Assembly: GCA_023267115.1 (NCBI GenBank)
Contig: JAHFNV010000003.1
Coordinates: 1-41,182 of the forward strand
From: Candidatus Nomurabacteria bacterium
Lineage (GTDB): Bacteria > Patescibacteriota > Minisyncoccia > Phycocordibacterales > UBA9973
Direction: 5' to 3'
DNA: 41,182 bases
Each line of letters opens with the position of its first letter. Position 1 is the stretch's first letter. The position numbers were made by a program, and so were the translations under genes. Shown here in pieces: positions 2,900 through 38,030 of the stretch. Below the pieces are notes generated by a model. That model had not been told where the DNA came from and did no database searches. It worked only from the letters and a program-made list of their open reading frames with translations.

Positions 2900-2958
2900 G
2901 GCTTAAGGATACAAAATTTAGGCTTAAAAATCAAGGCTTGGTGTGCTATATTAAGAGG

Positions 2959-3525
2959 ATGAAAAAAGAAATTATAACCATTAATGGGGGCTTGGGTAGT
3001 GGTAAATCAAGTACGGCTGACTTACTAGCTAAGAAACTTGGGTTTCAGCGTTTTTCTTCGGGTGACTTTTTTAGACAAGTTGGAGTTGATTTAGGAATCT
3101 CGGTCAACGAGCTTAATAAAAGAGCCGAGACTGACCCAGAAATTGATAAAATGACAGATGAAAAACTAAGAGGGTTAAGAAATGCCAAAAAAGTTGTCAT
3201 TGATTCCCGCACAGCCTATCATTGGATACCAGAATCTTTCAAGGTGTACCTAGATCTTCCTCCGAAAATGGCCAAGGGAAGAATATTGAATAATTTAAAA
3301 GATAATGCATTGCGCCGAAAAAGTGAAAACTCGTCTGATTCTAAACAAATTTACAAAAAAATGGAAGAGCGCTTAGAAAGCGAACAAAAAAGATATTGGG
3401 ATCTGTATAAAATAAATAATACTAAAAAAGATCAGTATGATTTAGTGATTGATACAAACAAAAACAACCTGGAGCAGGTCGTCGATATAGTAATTTCGGA
3501 ATACAAACAATGGATAAAAGGCTAA
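2959..3525 (+). CDS. Cytidylate kinase-like P-loop nucleotide kinase
   Basis: ITINGGLGSGKSSTADLLAKKLGF..FSSGDFFR. The ATG at 2959 is preceded by AAGAGG. Confidence 0.65.
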   Translation: MKKEIITINGGLGSGKSSTADLLAKKLGFQRFSSGDFFRQVGVDLGISVNELNKRAETDPEIDKMTDEKLRGLRNAKKVVIDSRTAYHWIPESFKVYLDLPPKMAKGRILNNLKDNALRRKSENSSDSKQIYKKMEERLESEQKRYWDLYKINNTKKDQYDLVIDTNKNNLEQVVDIVISEYKQWIKG

Positions 3526-23919: not shown

Positions 23920-24480
23920 TTACAAATTAAAATGCTTTTCTAGCCTATCTTTATTTGTGATATCTCTAACTAAAGCAAAATGCACATACTTCCCTATCCC
24001 TAAATAGTTAGCAATAAAATCAATCTCTTTCTGACACGGATATGGGTAAATCCACACGCTGTCATTAAATTTTACAAAATCCAGCTCTTTTATTTTTAAA
24101 CGAAATAAATCTCGTCTTCTTCTCTGTTTTTCAGGAATATCAAAAATCACCAGCCTAAAGTGTCTGTCCCAAATCTTAACTTTCCCTATTTCCAAATTTT
24201 CATAATCAAATCTTAAAAAGATCTTCCGCCCGTTTTCGGTCAGTACAAGTCTTTCCTCACTGCCAACCGTCTCAATAGAGATCAGCTTTTGTCGCCTTAA
24301 TTTTGAGAAGTATAATGATGTATTTGTTGGTTTCTTATTTAGTCCAAAAATTTCTTTTATTAGAGTTTTTGTAATTTTGTAACTTGTCCGTCTGTTCGCT
24401 AGGGCAACAGAAATACCAATCCCCATACCAAGAGCGCGGATAATTTTTCCTGAGTTTGATTCTTTATCTATTATGCGCAT
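23920..24480 (-). CDS. PaaX-like / Cas2-fold putative transcriptional regulator
   Basis: WDRHFRLVIFDIPEKQRRRRDLFRLKIKELDFVKFNDSVWIYPYP, the PaaX C-terminal/Cas2-like pattern, preceded by a wHTH-like segment. Confidence 0.55.
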   Translation of the reverse strand: MRIIDKESNSGKIIRALGMGIGISVALANRRTSYKITKTLIKEIFGLNKKPTNTSLYFSKLRRQKLISIETVGSEERLVLTENGRKIFLRFDYENLEIGKVKIWDRHFRLVIFDIPEKQRRRRDLFRLKIKELDFVKFNDSVWIYPYPCQKEIDFIANYLGIGKYVHFALVRDITNKDRLEKHFNL

Positions 24481-26591: not shown

Positions 26592-27101
26592 TCAAGCCCG
26601 AATTCTAGCTTCAAATTGCTTTCCGACGATATTGCTTGGATTTTCTTTATTGAAAAGGATTTCGCTGTCTTCCATTAAATACACATTCTTGATTCCCGCC
26701 TCTACCATTGCATTCCAACATGGTTCACAACACCACCAATGTCCCCACAAATACAAATCAGCGCCATTTGTATCATTGCCTTGATCTTTCGCATTTTTAA
26801 TCGCTTTTGGCTCTGAATGATTTTTGGGGTGGCATCCTTCACACAACTCATAGCCTTGCCCCGTCGGAATATGTTGTTTGACTCGCTCACATTCGTGAGT
26901 TTGATGATAATCACTACCGTTTGCTCCGCGCCCAATTACTGCAGAATCTTTTACCACTACACTTCCGGTAGGCATCGTCTTATCTAAAGAATTTTCGCGA
27001 GCATATTTTTTTGCTTCTTGTATATATTCATTATTGACTGATACATATTCTACAGTCCTGCCTTTCGGTAAATACGGATATTTTATATTGCTATTTGCCA
27101 T
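26592..27101 (-). CDS. Divergent dCMP/cytidine deaminase-family zinc protein
   Basis: NHSEPKAI (an H[AS]E motif) and CCEPCWNAMVEAGIKNVY (PCxxC-like), plus an extra H/C-rich segment HECERV..CEGCH. Confidence 0.6.
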   Translation of the reverse strand: MANSNIKYPYLPKGRTVEYVSVNNEYIQEAKKYARENSLDKTMPTGSVVVKDSAVIGRGANGSDYHQTHECERVKQHIPTGQGYELCEGCHPKNHSEPKAIKNAKDQGNDTNGADLYLWGHWWCCEPCWNAMVEAGIKNVYLMEDSEILFNKENPSNIVGKQFEARIRA

Positions 27102-27132
27102 ACGTACATAGTATATAATATACTCTACCTAC

Positions 27133-27969
27133 ATGACAACTTTCGACATAATCTATCAAAACATTATTAAAAAGATAATGACAGAGGGTATTGAGGAATT
27201 AAACCAACGCACAGGTCATAAAACACGCTCCTTGCCTGGAGTTACCTTCCAAATTGATATTGAAAAAGACGGTTTCCCTTTACTAACCCTTCGTAAGAAT
27301 CCAATTAAGTCGCCAATCGCTGAACAAATATGGTTCATTAGTGGTTCGAAAAGACCCGATGAATTTTTGCAAAAATTTACCAAAATGTGGAATGCTTTTA
27401 TTGAGAGTGACGGCACCCTCGCCGCAGCATATGGATGGCGCTGGAGGCATCATTTCGGCCGAGATCAGCTAGGTTCGCTTATTTTACTTTTAGAAAATGA
27501 TCCCAGCTCTAGGCACGGAGTAGTGATAACTTGGGATCCAAAAGATGACGGCTATGGTGGTTCACCTAAAAAAAATATCCCTTGTCCTTATACTTTTACA
27601 ATAAATATTATAGGTGGACGACTTAATTTACATAATATTATACGTTCCAACGACATGATGCTCGGTTGCCCTTTTGACACACTTGGCTTCGCTCTTTTGT
27701 TGTGTATATTAGCCCAAAGACTTGGAGTGCGTCCGGGCATTTATACTCATTCAATTTCAAACGCACATGTTTACGACAATCATTATGCCGGAGCAGAAGA
27801 ATTGTTAAAAAGAACAAACAACAACCAAAAAATTGAACTACATTTACCGAAAAATACTTTCGAGAGGGCGGAAAAATTAGACGAGGCTTTAGTCGGAGAA
27901 ATATTCACTGACCTTTCTTCTCAATATAATCCAAATGAGCCAATTGGAGGACTTGAGATAGCTCTATAA
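27133..27969 (+). CDS. Thymidylate synthase (ThyA) family enzyme carrying Asp at the pyrimidine-specificity position
   Basis: Aligns without gaps to the ThyA core: RTG..., FPLLT, WF, AYGWRW, NDPSSR, IPC(P), RSNDMMLGCPFDTLGFALL, NAHVYDNH. The canonical PFN is PFD here. Confidence 0.8.
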   Translation: MTTFDIIYQNIIKKIMTEGIEELNQRTGHKTRSLPGVTFQIDIEKDGFPLLTLRKNPIKSPIAEQIWFISGSKRPDEFLQKFTKMWNAFIESDGTLAAAYGWRWRHHFGRDQLGSLILLLENDPSSRHGVVITWDPKDDGYGGSPKKNIPCPYTFTINIIGGRLNLHNIIRSNDMMLGCPFDTLGFALLLCILAQRLGVRPGIYTHSISNAHVYDNHYAGAEELLKRTNNNQKIELHLPKNTFERAEKLDEALVGEIFTDLSSQYNPNEPIGGLEIAL

Positions 27970-27974
27970 AACAA

Positions 27975-28466
27975 ATGAAAATTTCACTCATTGCTGCTAT
28001 TGGCAAAAATAACGAACTTGGGAAAGGAAATACTTTGGTTTGGGATATGCCGGAAGATTTAAAGTATTTCAGAAAGACAACCTCTGGACATCCGGTTATT
28101 ATGGGACGTAAAACTTTTGAGTCCATAGGTAGACCTATGCCAAAAAGAAGAAATGTAATAATTACTAGAGATGAAAGTTATCTGCGCCATGGCGTAGATA
28201 TTGTACACTCTTTAGAAAAAGCTTTAAATTTATTCAAAAATAGTAACGAAGAAATTTTTATAATCGGTGGAGGAGATATATATAAACAATCTATGCAACT
28301 AGCGGACAAACTCTACATTACACGTATAGATGCAGAAGACAAAGAAGCTGAAACATTTTTCCCAGAGATTAATTTAAACGATTGGCAAGAAACTTCGCGC
28401 GAGGAGTATAATAGAGACGAGAAGAATCCTTATAAATATGCTTTTGTAATCTACCAGAGAAAATAA
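27975..28466 (+). CDS. folA: Dihydrofolate reductase
   Basis: ISLIAAIGKNNELGKGN.L.W..PEDLKYFRK.T.GHPVIMGRKTFESIG..., IIGGG.IY. Confidence 0.9.
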   Translation: MKISLIAAIGKNNELGKGNTLVWDMPEDLKYFRKTTSGHPVIMGRKTFESIGRPMPKRRNVIITRDESYLRHGVDIVHSLEKALNLFKNSNEEIFIIGGGDIYKQSMQLADKLYITRIDAEDKEAETFFPEINLNDWQETSREEYNRDEKNPYKYAFVIYQRK

Positions 28467-28505
28467 TGTATACTGTATTGACGGCCGTCAGTATAGTAGA
28501 CAAAT

Positions 28506-28835
28506 CTAAGGATCCTCGGGAGTTCGGATGCGGATAAAAATATTTTTTCCGTCTGGAGACTTCTTTTTTTGATACTTTCTTTTTTTATTGACCTTGATTT
28601 TATTAACCAATTCTTTTTCTAAATCGAAACCTAAAATTTCAGACATGCCAAGCAAGAAAATGGCAACATCGGCGAATTCTTCGGCAACTTTAGGCTCATG
28701 CTTTTTAAATCTATGAAATGCTTCAGATAATTCTTCGTATGCATGGCAAAATTCTAGGGCAATATCTGTTGTATTGAACCCGTGCGCTAATTTATTGCGC
28801 ATCACTTCCTTCTGTAATTTTTTTAAGTCAACCAT
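28506..28835 (-). CDS. MazG-like all-alpha nucleoside triphosphate pyrophosphohydrolase
   Basis: AYEELSEAF...VAEEFADVAIFLL carries the E..E / EE..D metal-binding helices. Confidence 0.6.
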   Translation of the reverse strand: MVDLKKLQKEVMRNKLAHGFNTTDIALEFCHAYEELSEAFHRFKKHEPKVAEEFADVAIFLLGMSEILGFDLEKELVNKIKVNKKRKYQKKKSPDGKNIFIRIRTPEDP

Positions 28836-28837
28836 AG

Positions 28838-29224
28838 TTATTTTTCTTTCGTTACAATTCTTTTAATACCTAAACTCAAAGCCATCTTCTTGCAGGCTGA
28901 GCATAGGCTTTCTTTACAGTACATTGTAGCTCCGTCAAGCGAAATTCCAAACTTTAGGGCTTGAGATATAGCATTGTGTTCCGCATGAATTATCCTAGTA
29001 CACTCATTGGATTTCAGTTGGTGACCAACATCATTACAATGCGGTAACCCTGAAAGTGAACCGGTGTACCCGGTAGAAACAATTCTATTGTCTTGTGTAA
29101 TAACACATCCGCTTCCACTTTTGTCGCAAGTAGTTCTGGAACCGACACAGTTTGTGATATCTAAAAAGTATTCATCCCAGGAAGGGCGTTTGTGTTTTGC
29201 ATTTTTAACAGCCTTTTTCATCAA
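28838..29224 (-). CDS. dCMP deaminase (ComEB-type)
   Basis: WDEYFL..., TRIIHAEHNAI, CSACKKMALSLGIKRIV. Confidence 0.8.
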   Translation of the reverse strand: MMKKAVKNAKHKRPSWDEYFLDITNCVGSRTTCDKSGSGCVITQDNRIVSTGYTGSLSGLPHCNDVGHQLKSNECTRIIHAEHNAISQALKFGISLDGATMYCKESLCSACKKMALSLGIKRIVTKEK

Positions 29225-29265: not shown

Positions 29266-29994
29266 CTATTTTTTAAATTTAATCTTTTTAATCCTTTCAA
29301 AAAGAGGTTGATAAATATCTTCGCGCGGGTCAATAAATAATTCTTTTTTGTTAACTTTTTCTGTAAACAGAACTGGGGCCTCGGTAATTAAGGCAAGGGG
29401 TTGTTGTTCTTTGCCCTCTCCCATACAAAGTACTGCGGAAGTGGCTAAGCTATCAGCAACGTCAGTCCGTGACAATTGTAAAATTCTTCCAAAAATGTCT
29501 GGTGTACCACGATAGTCTCGCACACCTTCAAATCCTGCATAGCCTAAAGCTATGCCCACAACTCCAGCTCTAAGAGGAAGTAAGCGGCTGTCGGTAATTA
29601 AAATACCTAAGTTTTTTATTTTATATTTTTTCTGTAATTTTTTACGAATAATTTTAGCTGTCTTGAAACTATCCTTGGGCAAGAGTACCAGCTTACCATT
29701 AGCATTTGATTCATCTATACCTGCAGAAGCTAGGACCATTCCATTTTTGATGGTGAGCCATGTGTATTTAGTGCGGAGCATATAATCAGACTCGGATTTG
29801 ATAATCTTTTCTCTCATTTCATCGTGAGAAAGCGATAAATCTATATCTCGTGTTCTGCCTTCTGAAAGAGCTACTATTTTAGAAATGACGACCAATACGG
29901 ATTTTTCTGGAATTGCTACTATATATCGTAGTATAAAGTTCAGCAAATTTTCATTCTCTCTAAAAACTCTGGTTTTAATTGCTTTTATTTGCAT
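29266..29994 (-). CDS. CofE-like (F420-0:gamma-glutamyl ligase family) protein
   Basis: SKIVALSEGR...SAGIDESNA...ITDS...G.ALG.AG...DYRG..D.FGR.L pattern. Confidence 0.55.
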   Translation of the reverse strand: MQIKAIKTRVFRENENLLNFILRYIVAIPEKSVLVVISKIVALSEGRTRDIDLSLSHDEMREKIIKSESDYMLRTKYTWLTIKNGMVLASAGIDESNANGKLVLLPKDSFKTAKIIRKKLQKKYKIKNLGILITDSRLLPLRAGVVGIALGYAGFEGVRDYRGTPDIFGRILQLSRTDVADSLATSAVLCMGEGKEQQPLALITEAPVLFTEKVNKKELFIDPREDIYQPLFERIKKIKFKK

Positions 29995-30646
29995 CGCTAG
30001 TGTTCTTTTCTTTTAGAAGATAAATGCCTAAGTAAGAAAGCGGGGTGTAAAGAAAGCCCATCAGAATTTTGAAAAGCCACCAGGGAATAATAATAGCTAT
30101 TATGGTACTTACTGGATAGACTCCAAGAAAAGCAATAAACATAAAAATTACCGTGTCTAAAAATTGAGACCAAATGTTGGAAAAATTCGATCGTAGCCAA
30201 AATTTCTTTTCTCCAGTATGCTTTCTAAAAAAGAAAAAAGCAATAACATCTTGATATTCAGCAATAACAAAAGCAGCTAGCGAAGCAACGGAGATGCGTG
30301 CGCTTAAACCGAAAATTTGATTATATCCGTCTTTTACCCAAAGACTTTCCTTGGCCCAAGGGGTTATAGTGGAAATAAAAGAGTAAAGTAAAAACAGTAT
30401 GATACTTATCACACCAGCCAAAACGAAATTCTTAGCCATTTTTTTGCCGTAAACTTCGCCAATCACATCCGTCATGATAAAAACAATCGGAAAAGAAAAA
30501 ACCGCCACTGAAAGATGAGTGCCAAAAATAAAAGGCATCAATTTTATACCCAGAGTGTTGGCGGCAAAAAGCGAGGTAATGTAAAGTACAAGGCAAACTA
30601 ATATTTTCTTTGAGACAAGTGGGAAAGATTCGTAATTATTAATCAT
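29975..30646 (-). CDS. yhhQ: YhhQ/VUT-family queuosine-precursor transporter
   Basis: FIMTDVIGEVYGKK, AEYQDV, NIWSQFLDTVIF. Confidence 0.75.
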   Translation of the reverse strand: MINNYESFPLVSKKILVCLVLYITSLFAANTLGIKLMPFIFGTHLSVAVFSFPIVFIMTDVIGEVYGKKMAKNFVLAGVISIILFLLYSFISTITPWAKESLWVKDGYNQIFGLSARISVASLAAFVIAEYQDVIAFFFFRKHTGEKKFWLRSNFSNIWSQFLDTVIFMFIAFLGVYPVSTIIAIIIPWWLFKILMGFLYTPLSYLGIYLLKEKNTSDANKSN

Positions 30647-30869: not shown

Positions 30870-31289
30870 CTACTTCACCTCGATCCCCATACTCCGCGCG
30901 GAGCCGGAGATGATGCGGATGGCTCCTTCCATATCTTTGGCATTTAAGTCCGGCATTTTCTTTTTGGCTATTTCCAGAGCTTGAGCCTTAGTGATTTTCC
31001 CAGCTTTAGTGGCGACGTTGTTGCCCGATCCTTTTTCTATTCCAGCCGCTTTTAAAATAAGTCCTGAAACCGGAGGAGTTTTGACAATAAAATCATAGGA
31101 CCGGTCTTCATACACGGTGATAACTACCGAAACTTTATCCCCGGCCATTTTTTGGGTAGCGGCATTAAACTTGGTGACAAAGTCACCAATGTTTATCCCG
31201 GCCTGCCCGAGCGCCGGCCCCAAGGGTGGCGCTGGATTGGCCTTAGCCGCCTCTATTTGCAATTTTATTTTTTTGGTAATCTTTTTCAT
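30870..31289 (-). CDS. rplK: 50S ribosomal protein L11
   Basis: [28 protein letters not shown]. Confidence 0.96.
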
Positions 31290-31337: not shown

Positions 31338-31715
31338 TTAGGAATCAAGACGGACTACACGTACTGGCTTTAAATATCTATTTCTAAAATTAACAATCAG
31401 ACCTAATTTATAATTACTGGCTTGTAAATATTTCTGCATTTGATAATAATCTTCCTTCAAAATTAAAGGCTTGGCTTTTAGATCTACAAGAATCTTATTA
31501 TCTATTGTAAAATCTACCTTATTTGTATAACGATTGTCAATCATTTCCATCGGCAACTCCTTTTCTCTCTCAAAATTGACATTTTTTTCTTTGAATAGCT
31601 TTTCAAGAGCATCTCCGTACTGCTTCTCTCTACAATATCTCCCCAAGTTATTATGAACTTTAAACAATAAACCACTTATTATATAAGACAACTCTTTATA
31701 GATTATTTCCGTCAT
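31338..31715 (-). CDS. GxxExxY-family protein (PD-(D/E)XK-like fold)
   Basis: LGRYCREKQYGDAL..., VDFTIDNKILVDLKAK...YYQMQKYLQASNYKLGLIVNF. Confidence 0.65.
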   Translation of the reverse strand: MTEIIYKELSYIISGLLFKVHNNLGRYCREKQYGDALEKLFKEKNVNFEREKELPMEMIDNRYTNKVDFTIDNKILVDLKAKPLILKEDYYQMQKYLQASNYKLGLIVNFRNRYLKPVRVVRLDS

Positions 31716-31765: not shown

Positions 31766-32308
31766 CTATATTTTTTTAACCTGTAAAAAGTCAAGCTCCA
31801 CCGGTGTCTCCCGGCCGAACATTGAAACCAACACTTTCACTTTTCCACGATCTTGATCAATCGAATTTACTCTGCCTTCAAGATCTTTAAATGGGCCGTC
31901 GGTAATCAGAATACTTTCACCCACTGCCACATCAATATTGTGTTTAGTAGTATCGGTATCCATTTTCTTAAAAAGAAAATCCACTTCTTCTTTTTTAAGA
32001 GGAACGGGATTAACTCCCGCTCCGACAAAACCGGTCACTCTGGGAGTATTGCGAACCACATACCAGGAATCATCGGTGACAATCATATCCACTAAAACAT
32101 AACCCGGATAAATTTTTTCTTCCACTTCCACCCGTTTGCCTGCTTTGATTTTTATTTTCTTTTCAATCGGCACAATCACATTAAAAATTTTGTCATTCAT
32201 GCCGAGTGAATCAATGCGCTGCTTCAAATTTCGAAGCACCACATTTTCATACCCGGCATAAGTATGAATAGCGTACCAATTTCTTAATCCTTCCGTTTCT
32301 TGTTTCAT
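31766..32308 (-). CDS. nusG: Transcription termination/antitermination factor NusG
   Basis: WYAIHTYAGYENVV (NGN) and KOW GESILITDGPFKDLEGRV. Confidence 0.93.
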   Translation of the reverse strand: MKQETEGLRNWYAIHTYAGYENVVLRNLKQRIDSLGMNDKIFNVIVPIEKKIKIKAGKRVEVEEKIYPGYVLVDMIVTDDSWYVVRNTPRVTGFVGAGVNPVPLKKEEVDFLFKKMDTDTTKHNIDVAVGESILITDGPFKDLEGRVNSIDQDRGKVKVLVSMFGRETPVELDFLQVKKI

Positions 32309-37260: not shown

Positions 37261-38030
37261 TGTAGACGTCCAACATCTATTATAGACGTCCAACATCTAC
37301 ATTTTAATTTTCGTGAAAATCAATGGGAGCGAATTGCTTAATCGAACCATCTTTAGAAACTGACACCTTGCCTCTTTCTTCTCGAATAATTGAAATAATT
37401 TCAGTGCTGTGTTTTAAAAAATTTTTATATCCACCAAATATTTTCAAAAATTTCCTTCCCTCAACGGGGTTAACAAGATGAAAATTTCTGGTCTTATATT
37501 CCTGTTCACTTGTACGGATCAAATATTTTTTATTTTTAGGAATGTCATGCACGCGATAGTTCCACATGACATAAGAAAAAATCATTTCAAAATAATTTTC
37601 ACGTTCGACGTACGAAGATTTAAATCTTCCCTGCATTAGAGATCCACTACGTTTATGTCTATCATTAAAATATTTTGTGTAGCCACCTAGTAGGCGTTTC
37701 ATAAATTCGCTAATACCTCTATCTAATTCTTGTTTTAAAATTAAATGAAAATGATTAGGGTTCAAGCAATACTCCACTATAGATATCATTTTCTTTTTCT
37801 TATGTAGACGTTGAACGTCTACATTTTCACGAAGTGCAATCTGAACACTACCTACTGGATCTTTGTATGAGAATAATTTTAAGCAAAGTAGAAAGCGTTC
37901 GACATCTTTGTCATCAGAAAAAATATCACGTTTGTCTACCCCTCTGTTGTAAACATGATAATACGAACCATTAATAAAAGAATGTTTCCTCATCTTTATA
38001 TGATAACAAAATAGATGTCCAACGTCTACT
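37261..38030 (-). mobile_element. Minimal IS200-like / REP-associated (RAYT-like) element
   Basis: A single Y1-HUH transposase gene flanked by the 17-nt imperfect palindrome TAGAYGT-CCA-ACRTCTA: one copy at 38012-38028 and two tandem copies at 37263-37279 and 37283-37299. Confidence 0.65.
37304..37993 (-). CDS. IS200/IS605-family Y1 HUH transposase (RAYT-like)
   Basis: YYHVYNRGVDKRDIF, HUH motif NHFHLIL, GSLMQGRFKS, and a downstream Tyr-containing helix. Confidence 0.75.
   Translation of the reverse strand: MRKHSFINGSYYHVYNRGVDKRDIFSDDKDVERFLLCLKLFSYKDPVGSVQIALRENVDVQRLHKKKKMISIVEYCLNPNHFHLILKQELDRGISEFMKRLLGGYTKYFNDRHKRSGSLMQGRFKSSYVERENYFEMIFSYVMWNYRVHDIPKNKKYLIRTSEQEYKTRNFHLVNPVEGRKFLKIFGGYKNFLKHSTEIISIIREERGKVSVSKDGSIKQFAPIDFHEN

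Follow-up and report, generated by a model that had tools for sequence, protein, structure and literature searches.

An Asp-type thymidylate synthase homologue in a Patescibacteria chromosome: a probable Xp12-type deoxycytidylate C5-methyltransferase and a possible reverse-order route to thymidylate

The window analysed in this study, a stretch of 41,182 nucleotides from an ultra-small Patescibacteria bacterium, harbors a ThyA-family gene surrounded by nucleotide and folate genes (Table 1). An earlier note on this DNA had described deamA, the ThyA homologue, DHFR, a MazG-like gene and deamB as one cluster, and all five open reading frames are present where it had placed them; however, the set is not one operon, since three of the five (deamA, MazG-like and deamB) lie on the minus strand. 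DHFR follows the ThyA homologue after a spacer of 5 nt (AACAA), deamA diverges from this pair across 31 bp, and a convergent unit on the minus strand comprises the MazG-like gene, deamB, a folate-ligase-like gene and a gene for a Vut_1 transporter, the latter two overlapping by 20 nt. The deamB frame opens with TTG, followed by an ATG codon. Beyond the module the window contains SecY, Adk, PyrH, EF-G, L11, NusG and MurB, which identifies it as ordinary chromosome.

Table 1. Genes, codons and control sites of the module in the window
Feature	Position	Strand	Remarks
deamA, divergent zinc deaminase, dCMP-deaminase fold, 169 aa	26592..27101	-	PF00383 (dCMP_cyt_deam_1) 46.6 bits
deamA Cys124/Cys125/Cys128 (CCEPC)	26718-26747	-	in 'LYLWGHWWCCEPCW'
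deamA His95/Glu97 (HSE)	26811-26819	-	catalytic
Divergent control region	27095..27139	.	two overlapping outward sigma-70-like sites over the deamA/ThyA 31-bp spacer
Sigma-70-like site, plus	27095-27124	+	TTGCCA-18-TATACT; 10/12 consensus matches; pattern match only
Sigma-70-like site, minus	27139-27110	-	TTGTCA-18-TATACT; 10/12 consensus matches; pattern match only
ThyA-family protein, 278 aa	27133..27969	+	PF00303 (Thymidylat_synt) 185.9 bits; predicted Xp12-type dCMP C5-methyltransferase
ThyA homologue Arg127/His128	27511-27516	+	
ThyA homologue Asn148	27574-27576	+	
ThyA homologue Cys151	27583-27585	+	
ThyA homologue Pro152	27586-27588	+	
ThyA homologue Ser172	27646-27648	+	
ThyA homologue Asp174	27652-27654	+	
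ThyA homologue Asp182	27676-27678	+	GAC
DHFR, 163 aa	27975..28466	+	PF00186 (DHFR_1) 209.7 bits, full length
MazG-like all-alpha NTP pyrophosphohydrolase (weak assignment), 109 aa	28506..28835	-	EExxE...EExxD metal motifs; PF12643 25.8 bits
deamB, ComEB-like canonical dCMP deaminase, about 127 aa	28838..29224	-	HAE, CSAC; PF00383 62.7 bits
F420-ligase-fold gamma-glutamyl ligase, 'putative folate metabolism' type, 242 aa	29266..29994	-	PF01996 125 bits
Vut_1/YhhQ-family transporter, 223 aa	29975..30646	-	PF02592 141.7 bits; TIGR00697 135 bits, above cut-off

The ThyA homologue aligned without gaps to solved thymidylate synthases (TSs) over ..RSNDMMLGCPFDTLGFALL.. in the HMMER alignments, and the Asp that had been read at the column of E. 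coli Asn177 was confirmed, both there and in a six-way MAFFT alignment, as Asp182. The MAFFT alignment also set Cys151 at Cys146, Pro152 at His147 and Arg127-His128 at Arg126-Arg127, in agreement with the PCP motif and the His for the second Arg noticed before, and placed Phe89 at Trp83 and Asn148 at Leu143. The phosphate, sugar and catalytic residues are retained except at E. coli positions 83, 127, 143, 147 and 177. The tail, ..QYNPNEPIGGLEIAL, resembles ..GYDPHPGIKAPVAI, so the TS-like hydrophobic C-terminus and the adjoining DHFR of the earlier reading were both borne out. The structure model that had been proposed as a check, an AlphaFold (AF2) model with pLDDT 92.1, displays the TS fold and can be superposed with TM 0.81-0.85 on the full-length TSs of E. 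coli and L. casei. The NCBIfam ThyA equivalog cut-offs were missed widely (140 vs 327) and one ThyA model, TIGR03284, was passed (117 vs 108 bits), while bit scores reached 163-183 against the enzymes of phages Xp12 and PaMx74 and their relatives, as compared with at most 123.6 against any solved TS; identity to the Xp12/PaMx74 enzymes is only 32-34%. These proteins carry the database label thymidylate synthase.

The survey of Asp among Patescibacteria homologues showed it to be universal, occurring in all 113 motif-matched close homologues (113 of 120 were matched by the motif pattern) and in 80 of 80 species-representative loci. D182 is invariant in a 52-sequence alignment. Homologues as far apart as 57% identity still all have Asp, and a constancy over so wide a range speaks for selection on this residue. 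Among the nearest 150 cluster representatives at 50% identity, 124 have Asp, 97 of these with Pro147, and the 21 of Asn type have His147 in all but one. In the six-way alignment, the clade and the Xp12/PaMx74 enzymes share a 7-residue deletion with YG[WY]RWRxHFGRDQ, and they also have in common the insertion WDPxxDGxG..KN[IV]PCP, Phe83 and a YNP C-terminal motif. A neighbor-joining (NJ) tree nested the Patescibacteria clade (monophyletic in 54/60 bootstraps) inside an all-Asp superclade, and the quartet pairing window and Xp12 against E. coli and P0176 was recovered in 60/60; T4 gp42 was the most distant sequence compared (mean distance 1.94 vs 1.24 for Xp12). The single-residue switch described previously thus stood as regards the Asp but not as a lone substitution: judged from alignment and tree, the protein differs from a canonical ThyA by more than a single switched residue and belongs to a large all-Asp clade with shared indels. 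It probably represents the Xp12-type deoxycytidylate C5-methyltransferases in a cellular organism, its predicted preference being for dCMP. In Patescibacteria the module is a housekeeping feature of the chromosome across the lineage and no prophage remnant, its arrangement being found in Paceibacteria/Nomurabacteria, Uhrbacteria, Falkowbacteria, Kerfeldbacteria and others, and no second thyA or thyX was seen in 1.07 Mb of flanks.

DHFR adjoins the Asp-type TS in 72 (tblastn) to 75 (ORF clustering) of the 80 related loci, and deamA lies within 6 kb of it in 75 (tblastn) or 72 (ORF classification). The two flanking deaminases that had been reported are both present, but the conserved partner is deamA, a canonical dCMP deaminase of deamB type being near the TS in only 10 loci; deamB, which scored 103 bits against TIGR02571 ComEB without reaching the cut-off of 219 and is 26% identical to PaMx74 cd (E=1e-14), is an accessory member not conserved with the module. 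Solved dCMP deaminases matched deamA only weakly (E=2.6e-4; Foldseek TM 0.4-0.5), with dCMP deaminases, RibD and TadA weakly and about equally matched in fold; phage deaminases generally gave weak matches only, and no similarity to those of Xp12/PaMx74 was detectable (E=0.83). A second zinc site of His66, Cys71, Cys87 and Cys90 is likely. The deamA family comprises 1592 proteins, all those with a source name being from Patescibacteria, and its hallmark motifs, including 'GHWWCCxxCW', are conserved; a distant Patescibacteria clade displays a DNPH1/NDT-family domain fused to deamA. The near-obligate linkage leads us to predict that deamA converts 5-methyl-dCMP to dTMP by deamination.

The MazG-like assignment is weak, as the PF12643 score falls just below the cut-off of 27 and phage MazZ 7ODY was matched at E=0.03, with a better match to PHROG 3301 'pyrophosphatase' (E=2.4e-10). 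The gene stands beside DHFR in 41-44 of the 80 loci, and in most of the loci lacking it the operon has a Dcd-like pyrophosphatase without the deaminase Glu. Its product may hydrolyse dCTP to dCMP and/or remove 5-methyl-dCTP/dUTP, keeping these out of DNA. The gamma-glutamyl ligase (210 bits against TIGR04132, below the cut-off of 350; gene in 17/80 loci) likely serves folate polyglutamylation, and the Vut_1 transporter (13-14/80) possibly imports a vitamin (folate?) or a queuosine precursor. Tmk was found near the Asp-type TS in 30 of the 80 loci and SHMT in 18, and a dUTPase of canonical size beside the island in about 16.

With reference to the literature, the columns of Asn177 and His147 discriminate best between cytosine-modifying and ordinary TS homologues in the MetaGPA study (PMC8670742), and the substitutions N177D in E. 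coli and N229D in L. casei are cited as making a dCMP methylase of TS (Hardy & Nalivaika 1992; Liu & Santi 1992, via PMC8670742 and PMC13326640). As so cited, these mutants give a biochemical precedent for the dCMP specificity suggested here, although they are point mutants of canonical enzymes, whereas the natural clade has fixed Asp together with Pro147, Phe83, Asn143, His127 and indels. Moreover, the Xp12 enzyme has been shown to form 5mdCMP, and 5mdC was made in vivo by the Xp12 TS homologue and by 5 of 7 metagenomic Asp-type homologues (bioRxiv 10.1101/2024.12.05.627091). The simplest answer to an essential need would nevertheless be a dUMP-specific TS that tolerates Asp, with deamA and/or deamB as plain dCMP deaminases supplying dUMP, the MazG-like protein as a dUTPase-type house-cleaner and DHFR recycling DHF, that is, dCMP to dUMP to dTMP with unusual sequences. 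Such a reading agrees with the TIGR03284 result, the complete TS fold and tail, the residues retained outside the five deviating positions, the name in the source databases, and the canonical deaminase in the window and canonical dUTPases by some islands, which imply a dUMP pool. Against it, the Asp-column enzymes T4 dCH, MilA, BcmA, Xp12 TS, RB69 gp48, DLP3 gp80 and 5 of the 7 metagenomic ones act on cytosine nucleotides according to the literature consulted, Asn to Asp is cited as moving the preference to dCMP in two canonical TSs, and the shared indels, the joint grouping with the Xp12 methylase, the invariance of Asp and the poor retention of the canonical deaminase all point away from it. 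We therefore regard it as unlikely, though the strongest of the alternatives.

Within the cytosine-directed chemistries, the earlier note had favored methyl transfer over hydroxymethylation, and the TS-like tail, the DHFR linkage, Asn at 143 and the Asp169 equivalent support that choice. Asn148 is as in Xp12, in place of the Asp/Glu of hydroxymethylases (six-way MAFFT); Asp174 (E. coli Asp169) is retained, vs Asn in 5-hydroxy-dCMP synthases (PMC13326640); and Ser172 (167) and Arg127 (126) are deoxy-type residues, vs Ala and Lys in MilA (PMC5175136). It could be argued that dCMP is hydroxymethylated or hydroxylated, or CMP used, to give a compound destined for a modified base or nucleoside metabolite and not for thymidylate, as hydroxymethylases (T4 gp42, MilA, BcmA) and 5-hydroxy-dCMP synthases are found among the Asp-type TS homologues and the change of E. 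coli Arg127 to His leaves the phosphate/sugar site not fully canonical. Asn148, Asp174, Ser172 and Arg127 of the window enzyme speak against this, as do the C-terminal lid and the tightly linked DHFR, which hydroxymethylases do not need since they release THF (PMC5175136), and we consider such chemistry highly improbable.

Likewise, the analogy drawn before with T4-type enzyme sets holds for the Asp, the pyrophosphatase and the deaminase, but the closest known analogue is the 5mC module of Xp12/PaMx74. The T4 system (gp42, gp56 dCTPase, gp1 dNMP kinase, cd, td, frd) also shares the RSND motif, whereas gp42, with Asp145 at 143, Thr at 147, no C-terminal lid and release of THF, bears a hydroxymethylase signature that is absent from the window enzyme. 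Xp12/PaMx74-type phages gave its best phage matches, and their enzymes resemble it in Asp177, Pro147, Asn143, Phe83, the YGxRWRxHFGRDQ deletion motif, the KN[IV]PCP insertion and the YNP tail. In both modules an Asp-type TS, deaminase, DHFR and MazG-type pyrophosphohydrolase lie side by side, the MazG-type gene adjoining the Asp-type TS in PaMx74 and Xp12. The in-cis deaminases of Asp-type homologues are 5mC-selective, and the dT nucleotides of Xp12-type phages are proposed to arise from deaminated 5-methyl-dC nucleotides; the substrate of mSCD-B5, the sole characterised phage deaminase, is a triphosphate and not a monophosphate (bioRxiv 10.1101/2024.12.05.627091). The window module differs in being chromosomal and lineage-wide, among ribosomal and translation genes, at 32-34% identity; its deamA is of a separate Patescibacteria-specific family and not phage cd-like; its TS homologue has His at Arg127 and a longer tail with a hydrophobic end as in TS; and Tmk linkage and the dNMP-hydrolase-like fusion suggest the monophosphate level.

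This resemblance also raises the possibility that 5-methyl-dCMP is phosphorylated and 5-methylcytosine partly or fully replaces chromosomal cytosine, as in phage Xp12, with the NTP pyrophosphatase removing dCTP and the deaminase directing a share of the pool into thymidine nucleotides, which could hold alongside the best explanation. Its gene set is that of Xp12 and PaMx74, phages with 5mC in place of C, and the distant Patescibacteria clade has an operon TS(Asp)-DHFR-Dcd-like-deamA, in which the Dcd-like protein, its deaminase Glu changed to Pro, is likely a dCTP/dUTP pyrophosphatase; in about nine of these loci a phage-type deoxynucleoside-monophosphate kinase homologue comes next (PHROG 139, E=1e-16 to 3e-18), which would complete a T4/Xp12-style toolkit. 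The window's cluster, however, has no such kinase, the cytidylate-kinase-like gene at 2938-3525 being not clearly related, and Tmk and the DNPH1/NDT-like fusion to deamA point to a dTMP product. Sequence by itself cannot reveal such modification; our literature search found no report of it, and to our knowledge pre-replicative base replacement is not known in any cellular organism. We hold this reading to be quite unlikely.

The reading preferred here, at a probability of roughly one half (0.52), is a thymidylate pathway from dCTP through dCMP and 5-methyl-dCMP to dTMP, in which the classical steps run in reverse order and which would be the equivalent in cells of the Xp12 module. The MazG-like NTPase would split dCTP into dCMP and PPi, and the Asp182/Pro152 enzyme would convert dCMP and CH2-THF to 5-methyl-dCMP and DHF. 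For this enzyme the active-site signature and subfamily membership suggest the base preference, Ser172/Arg127 the deoxy sugar, and Asn148, Asp174, the lid and the DHFR linkage the methyl product. The adjacent DHFR, whose family assignment is shown, would reduce DHF to THF, deamA would yield dTMP, and Tmk, which lies within the island in many relatives, would phosphorylate it to dTDP. The transporter and the folate-type glutamate ligase of the minus-strand unit may supply and retain the folate cofactor, with deamB as an accessory. The folds, the catalytic Cys/Glu/Tyr/His set, the cofactor logic (CH2-THF to DHF to THF) and the net dCMP to dTMP are those of the canonical ThyA-DHFR-dCMP deaminase pathway (EC 2.1.1.45, 1.5.1.3, 3.5.4.12), from which the window set differs in Asp177 and Pro147 for Asn and His, in scores far under the ThyA equivalog cut-offs and in the predicted order, where 5-methyl-dCMP takes the place of dUMP and no dUMP intermediate is needed. 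The dUMP-independent route had been called new for the lineage; our literature search found no paper on a methylate-first thymidylate route in cellular organisms, so it would be new for cellular life, yet not in kind, being known so far from phages of Xp12 type.

Several points weigh against this reverse order. The specificity is deduced from residues and from relatedness at the low identity given above; the gene set and net stoichiometry equal those of the ordinary dCMP deaminase, ThyA and DHFR pathway, and so context alone cannot order the steps; deamB and the dUTPases near some islands argue for a dUMP pool, of which a strictly dCMP-specific enzyme could make no use; mSCD-B5 works at the triphosphate level; the MazG-like assignment is a weak one; and the substrate of deamA is a prediction for a protein unlike its phage counterparts. 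Overall, the earlier note's interpretation is supported, all of its proposed computational checks that were run here having favored it, with the substrate preference kept as a prediction.

In mammals, DCTPP1, DCTD and DNPH1 clear nucleotides released from methylated DNA. This trio resembles the present genes in its MazG-type all-alpha dCTP/5-methyl-dCTP pyrophosphatase, in a dCMP-deaminase-fold enzyme turning 5-modified dCMP into a dUMP analogue, and in the DNPH1/NDT-family domain that the distant Patescibacteria clade fuses to its deaminase; here, by contrast, the genes accompany that of an enzyme for which 5-methyl-dCMP would be the intended product, and the likeness is one of enzyme class.

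The five genes of nucleotide metabolism that an earlier note had read from this DNA were all recovered at the same coordinates by ORF listing and profile searches (see the table), and they form an island around a 278-aa ThyA homologue, hereafter the Asp-type TS. A TIGR04132-like ligase gene and a Vut_1/YhhQ gene, overlapping by 20 nt, belong with deamB and the MazG-like gene to one minus-strand unit, and the pair was also observed in 13-17 related loci, a pattern that hints at a folate, not a queuosine precursor, as the import of this YhhQ-family transporter. The remainder of the 41-kb window also carries TsaE and Sua5, and its flanking housekeeping genes, namely SecY, the adenylate and UMP kinases (Adk, PyrH), ribosomal protein operons, EF-G, NusG-L11 and MurB, identify it as ordinary chromosome and rule out a prophage or viral contig. 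The closest species-level relatives are Candidatus Paceibacterota/Nomurabacteria MAGs, with a ThyA homologue 77% identical.

Features of the window, and genes near the Asp-type TS in 80 species-representative Patescibacteria loci (tblastn and ORF clustering)
Feature	Position	Strand	Evidence or remark	Loci (of 80)
deamA, divergent zinc deaminase	26592-27101	-	PF00383, 46.6 bits	72-75 (75 by tblastn, 72 by ORF classification)
ThyA-family protein, 278 aa	27133-27969	+	PF00303, 185.9 bits	
DHFR	27975-28466	+	starts 5 nt past the ThyA stop	72-75
MazG-like	28506-28835	-	PF12643, 25.8 bits (just under its cut-off, 27); PHROG 3301 (phage pyrophosphatase family), E=2.4e-10	41-44, nearer clade
deamB, canonical ComEB-like dCMP deaminase	28838-29224	-	ORF listing and profile searches	10
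F420-ligase-fold "folate metabolism" glutamate ligase (folate-type)	29266-29994	-	profile searches; continues deamB/MazG-like unit	17
Vut_1 transporter	29975-30646	-	profile searches; continues deamB/MazG-like unit	13-14
dUTPase-superfamily gene				31
Thymidylate kinase (Tmk)				30
Serine hydroxymethyltransferase (SHMT)				18
Window kinase	2938-3525			
PaaX-like protein	23920-24480		PF20803	
Paired promoter-like sites	27095-27139		deamA/ThyA homologue spacer (31 bp)	
Palindrome	28467-28505		coordinates are those of the 39-nt convergent DHFR/MazG-like gap around it	
rplK (L11)	30870-31289			
PD-(D/E)XK nuclease-family gene	31338-31715		PF13366, 84.8 bits	
nusG	31766-32308			
IS200-like Y1 transposase-family ORF	37304-37993		PF01797	

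In thymidylate synthase, Asn177 (E. coli numbering) forms hydrogen bonds to uracil O4/N3, and His147 belongs to the same network. The claim that the window enzyme carries Asp at this specificity column held, as Asp182 lands on Asn177 both in the HMMER alignment to solved thymidylate synthases, which runs without gaps across RSNDMMLGCPFDTLGFALL, and in a six-way alignment, in which the key residues of the E. coli and T4 sequences fell where they should. The unusual PCP at the catalytic cysteine was likewise borne out, with Cys151-Pro152 replacing Cys146-His147, so that both members of the dUMP-specific pair Asn177/His147 are missing and Asp182 and Pro152 stand there instead. The six-way alignment also revealed Arg127-His128 for Arg126-Arg127, Phe89 for Trp83 and Asn148 for Leu143, with Glu58, Tyr94, Arg21, Arg166, Ser167, Asp169, His207 and Tyr209 kept (E. 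coli numbering). The catalytic set Cys146, Glu58, Tyr94, Arg21/126'/166 and His207/Tyr209 is found as Cys151, Glu64, Tyr100, Arg26/127/171 and His212/Tyr214, and the C-terminal tail is similar to the TS lid, in keeping with the TS-like C-terminus of the earlier note. The AlphaFold2 model (pLDDT 92.1) overlays full-length TS structures with TM 0.81-0.85. Against the curated ThyA equivalog profiles, the protein scored below the cut-off for NF002497 (140 vs 327) and NF002495 (134 vs 327) and barely above it for TIGR03284 (117 vs 108).

Asp at column 177 was detected in 80/80 species-representative Patescibacteria loci and in all 113 motif-matched sequences among 120 close homologues, and an alignment of 52 sequences shows no variation at D182 or P152. 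This conservation, together with the ungapped HMMER alignment, rules out an alignment artefact or sequencing error. The 80 loci are recorded under Nomurabacteria, Paceibacterota, Uhrbacteria, Falkowbacteria, Kerfeldbacteria, Harrisonbacteria and Parcubacteria, with identities down to 57%. Among the nearest 150 representatives of 50%-identity clusters, drawn from a 1.8-billion-protein library, Asp was present in 124, of which 97 have Pro147, and 21 were Asn-type, 20 of them keeping His147. A recent lone Asn-to-Asp switch in a canonical ThyA was ruled out by the large all-Asp clade, the co-varying residues and the indels. In a MetaGPA study, positions 177 and 147 were the best separators of TS homologues on cytosine-modified and unmodified contigs (PMC8670742). 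We also noticed a few cluster representatives (P0262 and P0269, also P0244, P0267 and P0270) that harbor Asp177 in otherwise canonical-looking TS homologues clustering with Asn-type enzymes; they have Trp83 and Arg126-Arg127, with His at position 147 in some and Pro or Cys in others, and their sequences suggest independent Asn-to-Asp switches outside the main Asp clade. With regard to labels, loci L063, L065, L066 and L069 and many 'uncultured Candidatus Saccharibacteria' records place this Patescibacteria-type cluster under GenBank MAG titles such as 'uncultured Gammaproteobacteria bacterium' and 'Candidatus Saccharibacteria', and a 931-kb 'chromosome' (OZ246400.1) is among them; the organism labels on these MAG records look unreliable.

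Among phages, the ThyA homologue matched Xanthomonas phage Xp12, Pseudomonas phage PaMx74 and relatives of these two best, at 163-183 bits, with the solved canonical TS scoring lower (<=124 bits). Xp12 is the classical phage in which C is replaced by 5mC, and 5mdC was made in vivo by its TS homologue and by 5/7 metagenomic Asp-type homologues (bioRxiv 10.1101/2024.12.05.627091). Though only 32-34% identical to the Xp12 and PaMx74 proteins, the window enzyme shares with them the Pro147-Asp177 pair, and also, together with a Uhrbacteria orthologue, a deletion of 7 residues marked by YG[WY]RWRxHFGRDQ, an insertion WDPxxDGxG..KN[IV]PCP, Phe83, Pro147, Asn143 and the YNP C-terminal motif, features that are absent from E. 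coli TS and T4 dCMP hydroxymethylase in the six-way alignment. In neighbor-joining trees, the only kind built, of 140 sequences sampled by similarity to the query, the Patescibacteria sequences formed one clade (54/60 bootstraps) nested in an all-Asp superclade with 88 Xp12-like representatives, and the quartet joining the window and Xp12 enzymes against E. coli and the nearest Asn-type enzyme was recovered in 60/60 replicates. The gene set agrees too: an Asp-type TS, a deaminase and a DHFR, together with a pyrophosphohydrolase, are neighbours in Xp12 and PaMx74 as well.

Concerning the chemistry, Ala167 and Lys126' of the ribonucleotide enzymes MilA and BcmA contrast with Ser and Arg at these positions in the deoxy-specific TS and T4 dCH (PMC5175136). 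The MilA/BcmA-type ribose signature is absent from the window enzyme, where Ser172 and Arg127 stand there and neither varies across the 52 aligned sequences. Position 143 is a bulky hydrophobic Leu in canonical TS and Asp/Glu in hydroxymethylases, and 5-hydroxy-dCMP synthases have Asn169 (PMC13326640). Here, position 143 is Asn148, the same residue as in Xp12 and PaMx74, and the D169N change of the RB69 gp48/DLP3 gp80 type is absent, Asp174 being kept and invariant. DHFR is dispensable for hydroxymethylases, whose folate product is THF (PMC5175136). The window enzyme has Asp177 in common with the T4-type dCMP hydroxymethylase, but differs from its acidic residue 143, its open site without a C-terminal tail and its THF product by Asn143, a tail and a linked DHFR. 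The diagnostic residues of a T4-type hydroxymethylase, a 5-hydroxylase and a CMP-specific enzyme are therefore not those observed, and the earlier preference for methyl transfer over hydroxymethylation was strengthened by the Xp12-like Asn148, the tail and a DHFR gene lying 5 nt downstream and recurring across the related loci. From the ribo/deoxy and product residues and the DHFR linkage, the predicted reaction is dCMP + CH2-THF to 5-methyl-dCMP + DHF. Taken alone, a preference of the enzyme for cytosine nucleotides appears likely, more so than the full pathway proposed below.

The deaminase proposed for the following step is deamA, whose family comprises 1592 matches, every one with a source name being from Patescibacteria. 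It displays an N-terminal KYPYLPEGR motif, a catalytic H[SAG]E and 'LYLWGHWWCCxxCW' where PCxxC is usual; it has the CDA-fold zinc ligands (HxE, CxxC) of the dCMP deaminase family, with His95-x-Glu97, Cys125/Cys128 and His66/Cys71/Cys87/Cys90 invariant, and the last four, in a Cys-rich insert, would as conserved ligands probably bind a second zinc in the manner of dCMP deaminases. Foldseek returned dCMP deaminases among the matches of the deamA model, with RibD and TadA equal (TM 0.4-0.5), so that the model did not narrow down the substrate. The best phage matches were generic dCMP deaminases at ~30% identity, similarity to solved deaminases was weak, and the comparison with the phage deaminases gave E=0.83 for Xp12 cd and no match to PaMx74 cd. 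Like the 5mC-selective nucleotide deaminases (mSCD), deamA lies in cis with an Asp-type TS homologue (72-75/80 loci), but it differs from the Xp12, PaMx74 and mSCD deaminases in lacking sequence relatedness. Such unrelatedness is compatible with mSCD activity, since that activity has been called polyphyletic; the sole characterised phage counterpart is a triphosphate-level deaminase (bioRxiv 10.1101/2024.12.05.627091), which counts against the pathway proposed below. Second deaminase ORFs suggested by clustering beside deamA in several loci proved spurious, with no similarity to either deaminase. deamB as an obligate partner is unsupported, as it occurs near the TS in only 10/80 loci. In Uhrbacteria-type relatives, deamA is often part of a fusion protein of ~300 aa that ends in a Nuc_deoxyrib_tr domain (PF05014, 40.8 bits), for instance at L076 9369-10283, L061 10949-11875, L058 3008-3889, L069 10033-10944 and L074 2638-3612. 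The Nuc_deoxyrib_tr family includes nucleoside 2-deoxyribosyltransferases and the DNPH1/Rcl dNMP N-glycosidases. The fusion suggests a possible nucleotide sanitation at the monophosphate level, coupled to the deaminase.

With these pieces, we propose that the MazG-like enzyme would supply dCMP from dCTP and/or destroy 5-methyl-dCTP, that the Asp-type TS would methylate dCMP to 5-methyl-dCMP, and that deamA would convert 5-methyl-dCMP to dTMP. Human DCTPP1 likewise destroys 5-methyl-dCTP. The MazG-like protein also gave a weak match to PDB MazZ (E=0.03), and its ExxE...ExxD metal-binding motifs are visible as EELSE and EEFAD. We put the probability of this full reversed-order pathway at about 0.5. 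The linkage of Tmk and SHMT fits dTMP as the end product of the island. The classical thymidylate route has the same net reaction and differs in the order of steps and in its intermediate, dUMP instead of 5-methyl-dCMP; gene context alone is therefore indecisive, and the case is made from the active site and from the subfamily to which the enzyme belongs. An ordinary, dUMP-specific TS, which would lack the Asn177/His147 pair, is unlikely, though the window encodes a canonical dCMP deaminase and a canonical-size dUTPase adjoins the island in ~16 related loci, so that dUMP is probably made in these bacteria. That dUMP would go to waste if it were neither a second substrate of the Asp-type TS nor cleared by some other enzyme. 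Motif scans of 1.07 Mb of loci and the window for ThyX or an Asn-type TS near the island returned only one 73-aa chance ORF.

The accessory genes vary among relatives. About 24 loci harbor a 218-240-aa dCTP-deaminase-like (Dcd-like) protein of the dUTPase superfamily between DHFR and deamA (e.g. L080 9370-10029, L058 2329-3045, L079 10292-10954), with Pro at the catalytic Glu of Dcd and Dcd:Dut enzymes ('TLE' becoming 'TIP', 'MIP' or similar). As the deaminase Glu is replaced, the protein is probably a pure dCTP/dUTP pyrophosphatase. It tends to occur without the MazG-like gene, 34 loci having MazG only, 24 a dUTPase-superfamily gene only and 7 both. The more distant clade, with Uhrbacteria, Falkowbacteria and others, has the gene order TS(Asp), DHFR, Dcd-like, deamA, then in ~9 loci a kinase, then Tmk in its operon. 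This ~183-aa P-loop kinase, right after deamA and additional to the normal Tmk (L071 10792-11343, L065 11852-12403, L062 4861-5412, L082 10598-11161), matches phage deoxynucleoside-monophosphate kinases (PHROG 139, E=1e-16 to 3e-18; Pfam DNMK weakly), and judged by this homology it would be the piece needed for phosphorylating 5-methyl-dCMP. The window kinase was rejected as a homologue of these genes, the similarity being at the P-loop level only. At the island edge of locus L071 (12881-14125), a thymidylate kinase and a thymidine kinase seem to be joined in one 414-aa protein, with the second half containing GSMFSGKTEELLRR; Tmk-family ORFs of comparable length are present in L066 and L080.

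Some relatives unite in one operon an Asp-type TS, DHFR, a Dcd-like pyrophosphatase whose deaminase Glu is missing, deamA and a homologue of phage dNMP kinases, which amounts to the full phage toolkit for modified cytosine in DNA. It is conceivable, at long odds, that some bacteria of this radiation use the module's 5-methyl-dCTP in replication, so that genomic C would be partly or wholly 5mC installed pre-replicatively. If true, base replacement of the phage kind would be on record in cellular organisms for the first time, and pre-replicative cytosine replacement in any cell is now a directly testable question.

To our knowledge, the textbook route to thymidylate in cells is the methylation of dUMP, with ThyA or ThyX as the enzyme. 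If the dCMP-first pathway is true, a very large radiation (Patescibacteria/CPR) uses a third housekeeping arrangement, so far documented in 5mC phages only. Public records name the Asp-type TS "thymidylate synthase" and deamA "deaminase"; if the pathway is true, annotations as "thymidylate synthase" or "dCMP deaminase", which run to thousands, and the metabolic models depending on them would need re-reading, and expectations on dUMP/dUTP handling and on antifolate and 5-fluoropyrimidine sensitivity would be altered. deamA (~1,600 sequences) would be a large untapped deaminase family that may be 5-methylcytosine-selective, an activity already exploited for methylome sequencing. The direction of transfer of the module, from such bacteria to phages or the other way round, would also become a question. 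The enzyme class and the production of dT nucleotides through deamination of 5-methyl-dC nucleotides are already known from Xp12-type phages (bioRxiv 10.1101/2024.12.05.627091); our literature search found no description of either for Patescibacteria or any cellular organism. The pathway proposed here would be a housekeeping form of this known chemistry, carried on the chromosome, spread across the lineage and equipped with a separate deaminase family and separate accessory enzymes.

Some minor features of the window were also recorded. The deamA/ThyA homologue spacer is taken up by two promoter-like sites that overlap and face outwards, each matching the consensus at 10/12 positions, and by consensus match only they would fit co-regulation of deamA with ThyA-DHFR. 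The convergent DHFR/MazG-like gap contains a perfect palindrome, TGACGGCCGTCA, between ATACTG...CAGTAT arms, which may form a bidirectional terminator hairpin; the consensus terminator scan made no call there because it has no T-run. A PD-(D/E)XK nuclease-family gene separates rplK from nusG, two genes expected to be adjacent. Lastly, an IS200-like Y1 transposase-family ORF and a PaaX-like protein with a Cas2-like central domain were observed, both with no obvious tie to the nucleotide genes.
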